Source: Chloroflexota bacterium (GTDB lineage Bacteria > Chloroflexota > Dehalococcoidia > Lucifugimonadales > UBA3495). Taken from it: 64,000 nt of DNA. The position numbers were made by a program, and so were the translations under genes. The notes below the pieces were generated by a model. That model was not told where the DNA came from and made no database searches. It saw only the letters and a program-made list of their open reading frames with translations. Where the stretch lies: positions 74,236-138,235 of the forward strand of contig JAQBVF010000005.1 in the NCBI GenBank assembly GCA_027623675.1, in the 5' to 3' direction. Numbering within the stretch: the stretch's first letter is position 1; every line of letters begins with the position of its first letter. Positions 14,663-44,521 of the stretch are shown piece by piece.

Positions 14663-15958
14663 TTAATGGGCTGGGGCCATGCCGGCGCCCGAGGGCCTTC
14701 GCTCCCTGATGGTGAATACCGTCACAGTGGCGATGATCAAGAGGATGATGTTGCTCCAGATGGCGATGTCGTAGGTGCCTCGGGAGTCGTAGAGCAGCCC
14801 GCCCAGGTAAGCGCCTAAGCCCGAACCCAGGGGCATCACGGCGAACATGGCACCGTAGATGGTGCCAAGTTTGGTGGTCCCGAACCGGTCTGAGGCATAG
14901 GCCGCGGTGATGGAAACCACGGCATTCCAGGAGAACCCCACCAGCAGCACCCCGGCGAGCAACACGCCGATGCCAAGAGATGGAACATTGAGGAACGGTA
15001 TCCCCATGGAGAGCAACACGAGGATGAAACCCAATGCCCTGAGATTGTAGGAAAAGCTCAGGTAGATCCGCCGGCCGTGTCCGTCCGAAAGGTGTCCCAA
15101 TACCAGCGCCCCGGCGATGGCGGCGGCGCCGATCAAGCTGAACGCTCCGGCGGCCACCATCTTGTGGTAGCCCAGGTCCTGCACGTAGGTGACGAAATGA
15201 GCGTTCACGAAGCTCATGGAATAGCCTCAAACGAAGTATCCCAAGGTTAGCCGGTAGAACAGAGGGGTATGGAACGCTTCCCGGACAGTTGCGTCCCGCC
15301 CCAGTAATTTCTCCCCATCAGACCTGGCTTGATGGCCGGCGGTTGTGCCGGCCCCAAACGGTTCCAACCCCATGTCCTGAGGCTTGTTTCGAATCAGCAG
15401 GAGCCCGGCGGGCAGCACCAGCACCAACAGCAACAAGCCTAAGAACCAGTAGGCATCTTTCCAGTCGAAGAGCACGAGGAAGAGCGAAGCTGCCGGTACC
15501 AGGATCATCGCCCCGAACGAACCCGCGCCGCTGACCAGCCCCATGGTCAGACCCCTGCGGGTGTGGAACCAGCTGCCGACCACTTTCGTCAGAATAGGGC
15601 CGGTGCCGAGGGTGATGCCGATGCTCATGATGGCGAACAGGGCGTAGAGCTGGCCCAAGCTCTCGATGAACGGTATGAACAACAGTATCGTTCCCATCAC
15701 CGCCACGCCGGAGAGCATGGCCGTCTTGGCGCTGTAGCGGTCGGCCAGATACCCCGCCAACGGACGCAGCAGGCCAGAGATCATGAAGGTCAGGGCGAAG
15801 GCCAGCGAGAGGGAGCCGCGGCTCCAGCCGAACTCCTCGGTCATCGGCTTGAGAAAGACGCCGAACGAGAACTGGCCGCCGGCAACCCCGAACGACACCA
15901 GCACGCATCCCGCCACCACGAACCAGCCGTAGAAATACTTCCGGCCGAATAATCTCAT
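14663..15958 (-). CDS. MFS transporter (OFA/MCT-like), 431 aa if the in-frame UGA at 15227-15229 is read as selenocysteine
   Basis: ORFs 15227..15958 and 14663..15217 share one frame; the join reads LGYFV*GYSMSFVNAHF; MFS motif A occurs in both halves (GYLADRYS, GHLSDGHGRR). Confidence 0.85.
15197..15217 (-). promoter_or_regulatory. candidate bacterial SECIS element
   Basis: mRNA reads UGA-GGCUAUUCC-AUGAGC-UU-CGUG-AA-C-GCUCAU: perfect 6-bp stem plus upper pairs, GU in the apical loop about 17 nt after the UGA. Confidence 0.65.
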
Positions 15959-16113: not shown

Positions 16114-16983
16114 CTAGCCGGTCTGCATGGGCAATGACGGGTCTGACGCCCATTCTGACATCGAAGCGTCGTACACCGCCACATTCTCGTATCCCAGCAA
16201 CGTCAAGATGAAGGCGTCGTTGCTGGCCGCGATCCCCCCGCCGCAGTAGGTGATAACCCGCTCTGCGGGGTCCGCGCCGACCTGGGCGAACCGTTCCGCC
16301 AGTTGCTCGGCTGGGAGATAGGCGTGGGTGACCGGGTCCATCAGGTCGCCCGCCGGTACGTTGACGCTGCCGGCGATGCGCCCGGCGCGCCCGTAGTTGG
16401 CGCCGCCGCTGCCCAGGTGCTGTTCCTGGCTTAACGCATTCAGCACGCAGGCGGCGCCCTGTTCCAACGCCGCCAGCACCTCGCTCTTATCAGCCATGAG
16501 CCCGGTCCTGGGTCTGGCGTGGAATATGGTGGGGGGATAGTCCCGTTGTTCCGTCGTTACCGGCCGGCCCTCCAGCTTCCATTTTTGAAGGCCGCCGTTC
16601 AGGACAAAGGCGTTGTCGAATCCGAAAGCCCGGAGCATCCACCAGATACGGGTCGCCCAGGAACCGGACGTTGAGTCGTACAGCACCGCCCGGGCGCCCA
16701 CGCCCACCCCGTATCCGGACATGGCCCTGGCGAACTGTTCAACCGGCGGGAGCATGTATCGGAAGGCGGCAGACCGGTCCGAGAGGTCGTTTACGAGGTC
16801 GGCATGGCCGGCGCCGGGGATGTGTTCCGCTGCCCAAGACTCGCGCCCGCTCGCCGCCCGGATGCCGCCGCTGCCATCGGGCAGGTTAAATGCGGTGCAG
16901 TCCAGAACGCGTATGTCACTGTCGTTCAGATGCTCGGCGAGCCAATCCGTCTCCACCAAGAATTGTGGATACTTAAATGGCAT
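16114..16983 (-). CDS. tandem-domain sulfurtransferase (rhodanese/SseA family)
   Basis: HIPGA, ATRIWWML, GRIAGS, active-site YCGGGIAA, VYDASMSEW; GGAGG RBS. Confidence 0.93.
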   Translation of the reverse strand: MPFKYPQFLVETDWLAEHLNDSDIRVLDCTAFNLPDGSGGIRAASGRESWAAEHIPGAGHADLVNDLSDRSAAFRYMLPPVEQFARAMSGYGVGVGARAVLYDSTSGSWATRIWWMLRAFGFDNAFVLNGGLQKWKLEGRPVTTEQRDYPPTIFHARPRTGLMADKSEVLAALEQGAACVLNALSQEQHLGSGGANYGRAGRIAGSVNVPAGDLMDPVTHAYLPAEQLAERFAQVGADPAERVITYCGGGIAASNDAFILTLLGYENVAVYDASMSEWASDPSLPMQTG

Positions 16984-17316
16984 CTTGGACCCTCCATTGA
17001 TTTTTCCGGACCAGGTTATTCTGCCGGACCTGGGAAGTTTCGCCAGACTTGGGCTGGAGACCATGATAGGTTACCTAATCTGGTCAATAATATCGCGGCC
17101 GGTGCTCGACATAACAGAGGGCAGTATTATCATTTTTATGATGGATCCCGTAAAGGGATATCGGTTGACGCTGGCATCGCGGCCCAACCATAATCCGGTG
17201 GGTAAGCACAACGGGAAGAGATGCCGGATAGGCTCGCGAAAACCGGTCTCCCGTCAGCAAGTTAGTCTGATTCTAGCCCAGGCTTCGGCCTGTGCCACCA
17301 ACACTAGGAGGCTAAG

Positions 17317-18390
17317 ATGCCGGACCCAGCGTTGAATTCGTATAAAGACCTTAACGTTCTTTCCGCGGACCCGGTCTGTGCCGGGGTATTCCTGCGCGAC
17401 ATGGAAGCGCCCGTGTCTTCCACGGAGGGCCACTTCATCCGCAGTCACTTTCCGGCGCCTCAGGTGGAGGCTGCCGATTGGTCGCTGCCGGTCACCGGCG
17501 ACGTGGACAACTCCCTTGACCTCAGTTACTACGACCTGCTCAATATGCCCAGCCACGAGGTCGTGAGCATCATGGAATGTGCCGGCAACAGCCGGTCGAC
17601 CATGCAGCCCCCGGCTGAGGGCGTCCAGTGGGACAATGGGGGACTGGGCGTTTCACGGTGGAAGGGTGTTCCGGTCAAGACCGTGCTGGAACGGGCATCC
17701 CTCAAGGGCGTCGCCACCGACGTTTTGTTCGAGGGCCTGGATTCGGGCACCGAGCCGCACTCGGGTGGCGAACTGGTCTATGCCATGAGCGTGCCGCTGG
17801 CGAAATTGCTGGACCCCGACACCATCTTGGCCTATGAGATGAACGGCGAGACCATCCCCAAGGACCACGGCTTCCCCGTCCGCCTGCTGGTTCCCGGCTG
17901 GTACGGCATGGCCTCGGTCAAATGGCTGGCCAAGATCACGGTTATGGACCACCCAAACTGCGGCTTCCATGAGATGGACTACCGCATATATCCGGCCACC
18001 GACGGCAAGAGCGACGCAAAAGCCAAGCGCGTCACCAAGCTGAAGGTTAAGTCGCTGATCAGCTCTCCGGTAAAAGGAGACGTCCTTTGCCCCGGCTCCC
18101 ATACTATCAAGGGCGTGGCTTGGTCGGGCGACGGGCACATCACCAAGGTTGAGGTTAGCACCGACGACAACCGCACCTGGCGCGAGGCCAAGCTGGAGGC
18201 GCCGGTCGGCAACTACTCGTGGCAGCACTGGGAGATTGACTGGGACGCAGCGGCTACGGGGCACTCGCTGCTCCGTTCCAGGGCCACCGACAGCCAGGGC
18301 AACGTTCAGCCCATGCTGGCGCCATGGAATTTCCGGGGCTACCAGGTGAACTCGATACATTCCGTGCCCGTCACGGTACGCAAGCCCTAG
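17317..18390 (+). CDS. sulfite oxidase family molybdoenzyme (no evident signal peptide)
   Basis: FIRSH, MECAGN (Mo-ligand Cys), DHGFPVRLLVPGWYGMASVKWL, C-terminal dimerisation domain. Confidence 0.93.
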   Translation: MPDPALNSYKDLNVLSADPVCAGVFLRDMEAPVSSTEGHFIRSHFPAPQVEAADWSLPVTGDVDNSLDLSYYDLLNMPSHEVVSIMECAGNSRSTMQPPAEGVQWDNGGLGVSRWKGVPVKTVLERASLKGVATDVLFEGLDSGTEPHSGGELVYAMSVPLAKLLDPDTILAYEMNGETIPKDHGFPVRLLVPGWYGMASVKWLAKITVMDHPNCGFHEMDYRIYPATDGKSDAKAKRVTKLKVKSLISSPVKGDVLCPGSHTIKGVAWSGDGHITKVEVSTDDNRTWREAKLEAPVGNYSWQHWEIDWDAAATGHSLLRSRATDSQGNVQPMLAPWNFRGYQVNSIHSVPVTVRKP

Positions 18391-43189: not shown

Positions 43190-44521
43190 GTGGCTGAACA
43201 GGGCCGGATCGGCCGGACGGTAAACTCCGCGCTCCACGCCCACTACGCCTGGTACATCGTGGCCATGGGCACCACCCTGCAGCTCACCACCAACTTCGTC
43301 AGTCAGGCCTTCTCCATCCTGATGGTGGTTATGCGCGACAACTTTGGTTGGTCGCTCACGGCCATCGTCCTCGCCTACTCCCTGCGCAGCATCGTCGGCG
43401 CGCTGCTCTCGCCCTGGGCCGGCGTCATGGGAGACCGCTACGGGGCCAAGAGAGTCATGCTGGTGGGCGCCGGCTTCTTCATGGGCGGGCTGCTGCTGCT
43501 CAGCACCATCAACCACCTCTGGCAGCTATTCCTCTACTACAGCATCATCTTGGGGGTCGCCCAGGCCTTGTTCCGGGTGAACATACCCACCACCGTCGCC
43601 GCCTGGTTCAAGCAGAAGTTGGGCGTCGCCGTGGGCATCCAGCAGTCGGCGGGCGGCATGGGCGCATCGGTGCTGGCGCCGGGCCTGGCCGTGCTGTTGA
43701 CCCAGACCGACTGGCAAACGGCATTCCTGGCGATCGGACTCGGCGGAGGGGTTATCGTCTTCGCGCTGCTGGCCTTCTTCCACAGCGAGCCGGGCGACCG
43801 GGGCAAACTTCCTTACGGAACGGCCGAAAAGGACAGGTCATCGGCCAACCCGTTCACCGGCGCCGTCGCCAAGGTGCGAAGTAAGGTCTTCATGCAGCAT
43901 GCCAAGGGGACCAGGGCCTTCTGGTTCCTGCCCCTGATCCACCACCTGGGCTGCGTCGGCCATGCCATCGTCATCGTCCACGGCGTGTACTACGCCACCA
44001 CCAAGGGCGTCTCGCTTGAGGCCGCCACCTTCATCATCAGCATCTACTCGTTCACCAGCATCGCCAGCCGGTTCATGGCGCCCGTTTTGGCCGACCGGTT
44101 CGGCGGCCAGCGCGTCATGGCCATCTTCTACGTCCTGCAGGGATTGTCGGTGCTGATGCTGTTCTGGACACAGGAACCGTGGCAGTTCTTTCTATTCGCC
44201 GCGATATTCGGGATCGGCTTCGGCGGCGAGATGTCGGCGTTCTTGGTGGTTAACCGGCAGTACTTCGGCATGGGCCCGGTGCGGGCTGTCTTCGGGATAC
44301 AGAGCATGGGCGCCGGACTGGGTATGGCGCTTGGCGGCCTGCTGGGCAGCGTGGTCTACGACACGTTCGGTTCCTACGATATCGCTTGGATCGTGTCCAT
44401 CGCGGCCAGCATGGGCGGGATGGTTGCCATCCTGTCGATGGAGTCCACCAGCAGGGAACTGATCCCCGATTGGGAGCAGTCGCTGCCCCAAGACGCACAG
44501 ACGCCGGCCCCAGCGGACTAA
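43190..44521 (+). CDS. MFS transporter (OFA/MCT-like; distant paralog of 14663-15958)
   Basis: YAWYIV, FGWS, GVMGDRYG, AWF, LADRFG; about 12 TM segments. Confidence 0.92.
   Translation: MAEQGRIGRTVNSALHAHYAWYIVAMGTTLQLTTNFVSQAFSILMVVMRDNFGWSLTAIVLAYSLRSIVGALLSPWAGVMGDRYGAKRVMLVGAGFFMGGLLLLSTINHLWQLFLYYSIILGVAQALFRVNIPTTVAAWFKQKLGVAVGIQQSAGGMGASVLAPGLAVLLTQTDWQTAFLAIGLGGGVIVFALLAFFHSEPGDRGKLPYGTAEKDRSSANPFTGAVAKVRSKVFMQHAKGTRAFWFLPLIHHLGCVGHAIVIVHGVYYATTKGVSLEAATFIISIYSFTSIASRFMAPVLADRFGGQRVMAIFYVLQGLSVLMLFWTQEPWQFFLFAAIFGIGFGGEMSAFLVVNRQYFGMGPVRAVFGIQSMGAGLGMALGGLLGSVVYDTFGSYDIAWIVSIAASMGGMVAILSMESTSRELIPDWEQSLPQDAQTPAPAD

Follow-up and report, generated by a model that had tools for sequence, protein, structure and literature searches.

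A conserved in-frame UGA, very probably a selenocysteine codon, in a major facilitator superfamily transporter gene of a SAR202-type Chloroflexota bacterium

Known selenoproteins are mostly soluble redox enzymes. Here we analyze a gene encoding a major facilitator superfamily (MFS) transporter whose reading frame is interrupted by a single TGA codon. The gene lies on the minus strand, at 14663..15958, of a 64,000-nucleotide stretch of DNA (hereafter, the window) from a Chloroflexota bacterium of the Dehalococcoidia order Lucifugimonadales (GenBank assembly GCA_027623675.1, contig JAQBVF010000005.1, positions 74,236 to 138,235). The bacterium is of the marine SAR202 type and, judging from comparison with related genomes, this TGA is almost certainly read as selenocysteine (Sec). 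An earlier note on the window had proposed a selenoprotein secondary transporter with Sec inside a transmembrane helix, and this proposal is supported by the presence of the TGA in orthologs, by its pairing with cysteine (Cys) and by the Sec machinery of the organism. The note had also placed such a protein outside the classic redox-enzyme selenoprotein families. That is right, but Sec in membrane transport proteins has precedents (PMC13188914).

Three described systems provide the background for interpreting this locus. The portion of the review PMC13188914 available to us catalogues several Sec-containing transport proteins: the YeeE/YedE thiosulfate transporter family (GUxSG), the SaoP ABC permease, a MerT-like protein, an E1-E2 (P-type) ATPase and the SO_0444 Cu/Zn efflux protein. 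The legend of Fig. 2 in the same source sets out the criteria for a bacterial selenocysteine insertion sequence (SECIS, or bSECIS) as an apical loop of 3-9 nt on an upper stem 4-16 bp long, a G at loop position 1 or 2, usually with G or U as the next base, a distance of 16-37 nt between UGA and apical loop, and a minimum free energy of at most -7.5 kcal/mol; some of the accepted selenoprotein genes likewise do not conform to this model (PMC13188914). In the L-lactate/H+ transporter SfMCT of Syntrophobacter fumaroxidans (PDB 6g9x/6hcl), the structural study describes H250 and D257, at the periplasmic end of transmembrane helix 7 (TM7), as a tested proton site, and R280 and N276 of TM8 as carboxylate-binding residues (PMC6573034).

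The transporter gene constitutes a single frame of 431 sense codons running from an ATG at 15958..15956 to a TAA at 14665..14663, and its sole internal stop is the TGA at 15229..15227. This TGA is codon 244, in the context LTLGYFV-TGA-GYSMSFVNAHF, which, with the residues FYR before it, is the position and context that the earlier note had given. Gene callers split the frame into one open reading frame (ORF) of 243 aa (15227..15958) and another of 184 aa that starts at M248 (14663..15217). Translated through the TGA, the protein matches the Pfam MFS_1 family (PF07690) over residues 20-374 (E 2.2e-53; 181.8 bits, cut-off 33.4).

The internal TGA is conserved across orthologs. Using the read-through protein as a query on 61 genomes (that of the window and 60 relatives), we located 20 loci, 62-100% identical, in 20 genomes, with an in-frame TGA in 20/20 and in the same alignment column in 20/20. 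These loci are found in 13 of the 20 genomes of the genus, in 6 of 17 from other genera of the family and in 1 of 24 from the other families of the order. One further locus (L076) and a divergent one (L075) raise the count to 22/22 orthologs with a TGA in this column, at identities of 38.6-100%, and the TGA is therefore not a chance occurrence; whether orthologs share it was a check put forward in the earlier note, and they do. The divergent locus, from a metagenome-assembled genome of Dehalococcoidia, is the DNA behind a database fragment about 40% identical to the window's protein (P0170), whose sequence stops one residue short of the TGA column; the locus reads AGIFA-TGA-CYTMSFVNAHY in a 435-codon frame, encodes a protein 38.6% identical to that of the window and carries the same hairpin sequence 9 nt past its TGA. 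A 301-genome sample of the phylum, searched at E <= 1e-70, yielded no additional TGA form.

Several observations concern the edges of this ortholog set. In the divergent clade (L075:3224-3229) the Sec codon is followed by a Cys codon, giving a U-C dipeptide in place of the U-G of the main clade, which could allow selenenylsulfide formation. One ortholog (L035, G002:C5), possibly in decay or misassembled, carries another in-frame TGA at codon 18 and a change of frame close to its 3' end; it was omitted from both the codon statistics and the tree. Another database fragment (P0267; 248 aa, 43% identical to the window protein) stops one residue before the Sec column and may mark a further Sec clade beyond the sampled genomes. 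Its DNA was found in none of the 301 phylum genomes at E <= 1e-60, the genome contigs searched held no relative, and a metagenome scan with P0170 returned distant relatives only. Two TGA-bearing MFS paralogs were rejected as further Sec cases: in one (G008:C109) the TGA aligns to query position 259, an unrelated site, and in the other (G012:C97) the aligned part has no stop.

Relatives with an uninterrupted frame place Cys at the TGA column. This is the case for the 10 best stop-free homologs from the 61-genome search (31-36% identical; 10/10) and for the stop-free homologs found in four genomes of a single family within the 301-genome sample (L087-L090, 38-40% identical; 4/4). Among 1.84 billion representative proteins, searched exhaustively with HMMER, full-length relatives reach at most 42% identity and no full-length Cys form above that value appeared; all matches above 60% are fragments, either ending at residue 243 or beginning at M248. 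Cys is present in each of the 20 best full-length representatives, within the motif F-x-C-G-[FY]-[ST]. The earlier note's view that UGA stands in place of a Cys agrees with all three of these sets, and the FFVCGF-type motif it gave for related MFS proteins is real (GFFVCGFT among the full-length relatives). Of 149 further representatives fetched, 134 are full length, with Cys at the column in 85 and other residues in 49. The note had likewise pointed to a paralog within the window, a 29%-identical MFS protein at 43190-44521 (plus strand), and this does align a Cys one position after codon 244, with the downstream His in register. In a word-indexed search of 5.8 billion proteins, the top 120 clusters listed are all halves of 238-259 aa, from Dehalococcoidia, Chloroflexi or SAR202 and labeled, where named, 'MFS transporter', 'sugar phosphate permease' or 'hypothetical protein'. 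In a 102-row maximum-likelihood tree, the 21 Sec rows group into one clade (Shimodaira-Hasegawa-like approximate likelihood ratio test [SH-aLRT] support 99) that branches from within the Cys forms, with one of them (P0122; 96) as its sister. On this tree, a single Cys-to-Sec change, never reverted in the sampled genomes, would be the simplest history.

Codon usage around the TGA indicates that the frame is translated as one. The ratio of nonsynonymous to synonymous substitution rates (dN/dS) between the window gene and nine orthologs is 0.12-0.28 for the N-terminal half and 0.10-0.30 for the C-terminal half in 8/9 pairs, the ninth being synonymously saturated; the two halves, which the earlier note had judged intact, are thus under similar purifying selection. 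Three codons separate the TGA from the next ATG (G245-Y246-S247; 15218..15226, minus strand); they vary almost only synonymously over 19 rows (G245: GGC 9, GGG 7, GGT 3; Y246: TAC 16, TAT 3; S247: TCC 11, TCG 7, ACC 1), with one S>T as the only nonsynonymous change, and so belong to the translated frame. All 19 rows counted have TGA as the internal stop, and the terminal stops are TAG in 14, TAA in 3 and TGA in 2. The note had named separate expression of the halves as an outcome that would overturn its proposal; on this the data speak indirectly, through the near-synonymous variation of codons 245-247 and an internal stop that is never TAA or TAG.

Immediately downstream of the TGA lies a candidate bacterial SECIS core (15197..15217, minus strand), encoding M248-H254. 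It consists of a 21-nt inverted repeat (15217..15197) that begins 9 nt past the TGA and has 6-nt arms with 9 nt between them, so that 15217..15212 pairs with 15202..15197 around a loop at 15211..15203. The 5-bp core stem is kept in 22/22 Sec forms, a single C>U change leaving a G.U pair, and variation in the hairpin is common only at the final base of the loop (C or U) and just 3' of the stem. Across 19 orthologs, the 128 invariant columns with degenerate amino acids have a mean minor-codon count of 6.3. Only 3/128 lack synonymous change, F250, V251 and A253, all of them within the hairpin, and the 8-column windows with the lowest synonymous change all fall at residues 238-264. Going by these codon comparisons, the constraint on the hairpin is one that acts at the RNA level and not only at the protein level. 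Ten distant Cys forms show no conserved structure at the site, and three of the four closest Cys forms lack such a fold.

The earlier note had described the hairpin as AUGAGC...GCUCAU, nine nt after the UGA, and its repeat and position are borne out; the shape it drew, with two extra U-A pairs, a bulged C and a CGUG loop, is not the minimum-energy fold. ViennaRNA gives a plain 6-bp stem with a 9-nt loop at -5.6 kcal/mol, compared with -4.4 for the CGUG-tetraloop form, whose pair probabilities are 0.11-0.15. The size rules for loop and stem hold for either fold (5-6 bp stem; 9-nt loop in the minimum-energy form, 4-nt loop in the alternative). The resemblance to a SECIS with a loop G is less clean than the note implied, since a G lies at loop position 1 or 2 in the suboptimal fold only. 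With this qualification, the hairpin is likely, but not proven, to be a SECIS.

The genome of the window encodes the machinery for Sec insertion, and all four genes that the earlier note had proposed looking for are present above curated cut-offs: the selenocysteine tRNA (selC; ARAGORN anticodon TCA, Rfam 70.4 bits), selA (554.8 bits), selB (347.7 bits) and selD. The selD gene (G000:C3:53424-54344, L018) is itself of the Sec type, with an in-frame TGA and, starting 20 nt past it, a 7-bp hairpin whose loop contains G-U. Sequencing support comes from contigs, rather than raw reads, of two samples of one study (X1 and X2), which cover the gene without a difference and have TGA at 15227, not TGC or TGG; one of the two may be the source sample of this DNA. 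A different study contributed a run (X3) whose related contigs pile up on the segment comprising TGA and hairpin, the sole variant there being at loop position 15203. The short stretch 15807-15894, in the region of the conserved TM1/TM2 MFS motif, is matched in all three runs by contigs from many other organisms, producing local depth peaks unrelated to copy number.

Profile and structure searches place the protein within the MFS. Its best NCBIfam match is the SfMCT L-lactate transporter family (NF049980), at 154.7 bits and below the cut-off of 320, and the oxalate/formate antiporter families also score below their cut-offs (TIGR00890, 111.7 vs 374.85 bits; TIGR04259, 90.9 vs 335). The best sequence relatives with solved structures are SfMCT (E 5e-31), MCT1 and OxlT. 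An AlphaFold2 model computed from a 60-row alignment is all-helical (mean predicted local distance difference test score 91.3; predicted template modeling score 0.89) and places residue 244 (15227..15229, minus strand) in helix 232-261, that is, TM7. In that alignment G245 is invariant in all 60 rows and H254 is at least 90% conserved, while the invariance of column 244 arises by construction, the non-Sec rows having been chosen for Cys there. Foldseek returns 479 Protein Data Bank matches for the model at E <= 0.001, judging by title, the top 50 listed consist entirely of MFS carriers, and SfMCT, OxlT, G6PT and the MCTs rank highest (SfMCT 6zgs, E 5e-16, template modeling scores 0.73/0.78; OxlT 8hpk, 0.78/0.86). 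By model and matches, the predicted protein is a 12-helix MFS carrier nearest SfMCT and OxlT.

The HMMER alignment to SfMCT (6g9x) has a constant +4 offset, under which the proton-site residues are kept (H250 as H254, D257 as D261) and the carboxylate-binding residues are lost (R280 to A284, N276 to A280). The retained pair is encoded within 15176..15199 (minus strand; codons H254 to D261) and corresponds to the periplasmic end of TM7. Residue 244 lies 17 residues away from that end, and A284 lies 18 residues into TM8, counted from its periplasmic start. As these distances are similar, Sec would be situated near mid-membrane, roughly level with the SLC16-type substrate site represented by R280 of SfMCT. 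Because H254 and D261 are kept and the TM8 Arg and Asn are lost, we tentatively propose a proton-coupled carrier in which the Cys or Sec of TM7 may form part of the substrate site or gate, where a selenolate would act as a softer, more acidic ligand than a thiol. This is a possible role for residue 244 rather than a probable one.

By comparison with relatives, then, the locus displays a recoding signature: a conserved TGA, Cys/Sec pairing, a constrained hairpin, the requisite machinery and selection on both halves. Our interpretation, which this evidence makes highly probable, is that UGA codon 244 undergoes Sec recoding within a single full-length transporter. Under it, SelA, SelB, tRNA-Sec and SelD of the organism would read the codon as selenocysteine, SelB would be recruited by the small hairpin within the coding sequence that starts 9 nt downstream, and the product would be one 431-residue, 12-helix MFS secondary transporter.

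A number of results weigh against this interpretation. In its minimum-energy fold the hairpin has its first G at loop position 4 and a spacing of 15 nt, just outside the published rules; the G position (loop position 2) and spacing (17 nt) agree with those rules only when the CGUG tetraloop forms, at a cost of 1.2 kcal/mol. The hairpin is weak, with a core of -5.1 to -5.8 kcal/mol, and the 42 nt past the UGA fold at -7.0 in the window, above the -7.5 limit, reaching -7.5 or lower in 14/22 orthologs (range -5.8 to -16.5); a 72-nt region is no more stable than its shuffles (z -0.12). Covariation, a check suggested in the earlier note, did not come out in favor: RNAalifold detects no compensatory pair in the core stem, which, being invariant, shows no compensatory double changes. 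The M-S-F part of the downstream peptide is present in Cys forms too, so protein constraint explains some of the conservation of the hairpin, and one Cys form (L090, G227:C57, 38% identical) has a weaker hairpin in the same place (6-bp stem, 9-nt loop, -3.9 kcal/mol), which could resemble a pre-SECIS state. The gene neighborhood, described below, offers evidence for a sulfur substrate in one genus only. Finally, selB is above cut-off in 55/61 relatives, so its co-occurrence with the gene does not discriminate and was set aside as uninformative; among the 20 genomes with the gene it is above cut-off in 18, and the other two are 84% and 86% complete.

The same data bear on three other explanations. 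An ATG occurs 9 nt past the TGA, and TGAGG, 7 nt upstream of that ATG, resembles a Shine-Dalgarno core, making re-initiation conceivable and constituting a further point against recoding. The TGA would then be a true stop, with an N-terminal half (six helices, 243 aa) and a C-terminal half (six helices, from M248, 184 aa) produced by termination and re-initiation and assembling in the membrane. Gene callers everywhere annotate two halves, and in MFS proteins a long loop connects the two halves, which are structural repeats (PMC6573034). The break, however, lies 12 residues inside TM7 (model helix 232-261) and not in the inter-domain loop, which would leave the N-terminal half with a third of a helix that the C-terminal half lacks. 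Codons 245-247 would go untranslated, yet they vary almost only synonymously and G245 does not vary at all in the 60-row alignment; the internal stop is TGA in 22/22 while real stops drift (TAG 14, TAA 3, TGA 2); the TGA aligns with the Cys of uninterrupted relatives; and the GG of TGAGG is forced by a Gly codon that follows Cys in relatives too. Taken together, these features make a split transporter very unlikely.

The weakness of the hairpin under published SECIS rules would also suit a selenium-free read-through of the UGA, by near-cognate insertion of Trp or Cys or by a suppressor, with the hairpin merely slowing termination. This we consider highly improbable, given that the genome has a complete, dedicated Sec machinery, that TGA is a normal terminator in this gene family (2/19 terminal stops) and that the site pairs with Cys, the standard Sec signature according to the criteria in the accessible text of PMC13188914; moreover, one base change to TGC or TGT would give Cys, and none is seen in 22 orthologs. 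That the TGA is a recent inactivating mutation or a sequencing or assembly artefact draws some plausibility from the ortholog with a second TGA and a frame change (L035), which indicates that decayed copies or assembly errors do occur. Its probability is nonetheless negligible, the explanation being effectively refuted already by ortholog conservation and selection: the TGA recurs in the same column in 22 independent assemblies, purifying selection is equal on either side (dN/dS about 0.1-0.3) and the contigs of two samples are identical. With Sec recoding as the preferred reading, the locus would represent a genuine, conserved recoding site and, by the usual comparative criteria, a new selenoprotein family.

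The genes around the transporter provide limited information on its substrate. Upstream, on the same strand, lies a two-domain rhodanese (16114..17064, minus strand; two stretches matching Pfam Rhodanese) that is closest to 3-mercaptopyruvate sulfurtransferase (NF008557, 155 bits, cut-off 250), and beyond it a divergent neighbor encodes a SorA/SoxC-type sulfite dehydrogenase-like molybdoenzyme (17317..18390, plus strand; Oxidored_molyb and Mo-co_dimer; SorA 259 bits, cut-off 600). Both neighbors score below curated cut-offs. Rhodanese proteins flank the ortholog in 8/12 loci of the genus, the window included, and in 0/7 loci outside it, and in the seven further genus loci the rhodanese is a four-domain protein; a SorA-like homolog is found within a few kb in 3/18 ortholog loci, these too being loci of the genus. 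A Lactamase_B_3 hydrolase gene lies directly upstream, in the same direction, in 7/18 fetched loci, all within the genus. Outside the genus, the neighbors at the seven loci are instead genes for Zn-dependent dehydrogenases, CoA-transferases and luciferase-like monooxygenases, among others. The rhodanese and SorA-like neighbors of the window are not conserved as such and the rhodanese recurs only within the genus, so we discarded the idea of a conserved operon as a clue to the substrate. Genus loci are kin and the other loci differ, and the sulfur link is therefore only a lead and not independent evidence. A small sulfur-containing anion or mercapto-acid as substrate, resting as it does only on neighbors within one genus, is accordingly doubtful. 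Unlikelier in our estimation is direct contact of Sec244 with a chalcogen substrate (thiosulfate, a persulfide, a mercapto-acid or a selenium species) in a proton-coupled MFS carrier, through a transient Se-S or Se-Se interaction; if it did take place, such contact would amount to a covalent or near-covalent relay step within an MFS translocation path.

Other features of these loci are recorded here for completeness. Downstream of the transporter, the window segment 10834-13620 contains a luciferase-like monooxygenase gene, an acyl-CoA dehydrogenase-like gene and a gene of the F420H2-dependent quinone reductase family, and luciferase-like monooxygenases flank five ortholog loci too. An ORF without an internal stop (L065:5698-6747, G033), two genes away from one ortholog, matches Pfam GRDB (E 7e-119), the glycine/sarcosine/betaine reductase selenoprotein B family. 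The Sec-MFS gene is directly followed, in two genomes of the genus, by another MFS gene that is SfMCT-like, free of stops and 24-27% identical (L058:8935-10281 and L060:4862-6205).

We found no precedent for a Sec-containing MFS carrier in the sources consulted. The terms MFS and major facilitator have no mention in the available portion of PMC13188914, a 2026 review that describes itself as the most comprehensive inventory; an MFS selenoprotein has none in the main texts, as distinct from the supplementary tables, of PMC9312934, PMC12013277 and PMC2398784, and the five uses of 'transporter' in the main text of PMC9312934 never refer to a Sec-containing one. A literature search on selenoprotein MFS transporters and on selenocysteine in SAR202 yielded nothing relevant by title or start of abstract. 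If the Sec is indeed at mid-membrane in TM7 of an MFS protein, the use of selenium would extend to the largest family of secondary transporters, raising the question of whether a selenolate in the translocation path serves as ligand, gate, proton relay or redox switch. Database entries for this family are seen only as half-proteins, and transporter inventories and selenoproteome counts for SAR202 and Dehalococcoidia are therefore wrong at this locus. The retention of Sec, without reversion to Cys, in all sampled members down to 38.6% identity argues for a real functional advantage of selenium.

Compared with the known systems, the window protein shares with SfMCT the best sequence, fold and NCBIfam match and the proton-site residues of TM7. 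It differs in scoring far below the family cut-off, in having Ala284 and Ala280 in place of R280 and N276, and at the Sec column itself, where SfMCT has no Sec but a Gly, with a Cys one position earlier. The hairpin resembles the bacterial SECIS located within ORFs, as captured by the bSECISearch consensus in the consulted text of PMC13188914, in being a small stem-loop of the coding sequence directly 3' of the UGA with GU in its loop, but it is closer to the UGA (15-17 nt to the loop) and weaker, and has its G within the first two loop positions only in a suboptimal fold. As in the Sec transport proteins catalogued in the available part of that review, Sec would replace a functional Cys in a membrane transport protein and is predicted by the logic of Cys/Sec pairs; those proteins, thought to handle sulfur compounds or soft metals, belong to other folds and superfamilies and include no MFS carrier (PMC13188914). 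The nearest comparison is with the Cys-form MFS relatives of Chloroflexota (for instance P0122, 42%, and L087-L090, 38-40%), for which we found no characterized function. They are of the same subfamily and length and have Cys exactly at the Sec column (G-F-F-V-C-G-F-T), but with TGC or TGT replacing TGA, the hairpin missing in 3/4 of the nearest and synonymous sites that vary. The Cys/Sec pair of this transporter family may be regarded as a natural experiment.

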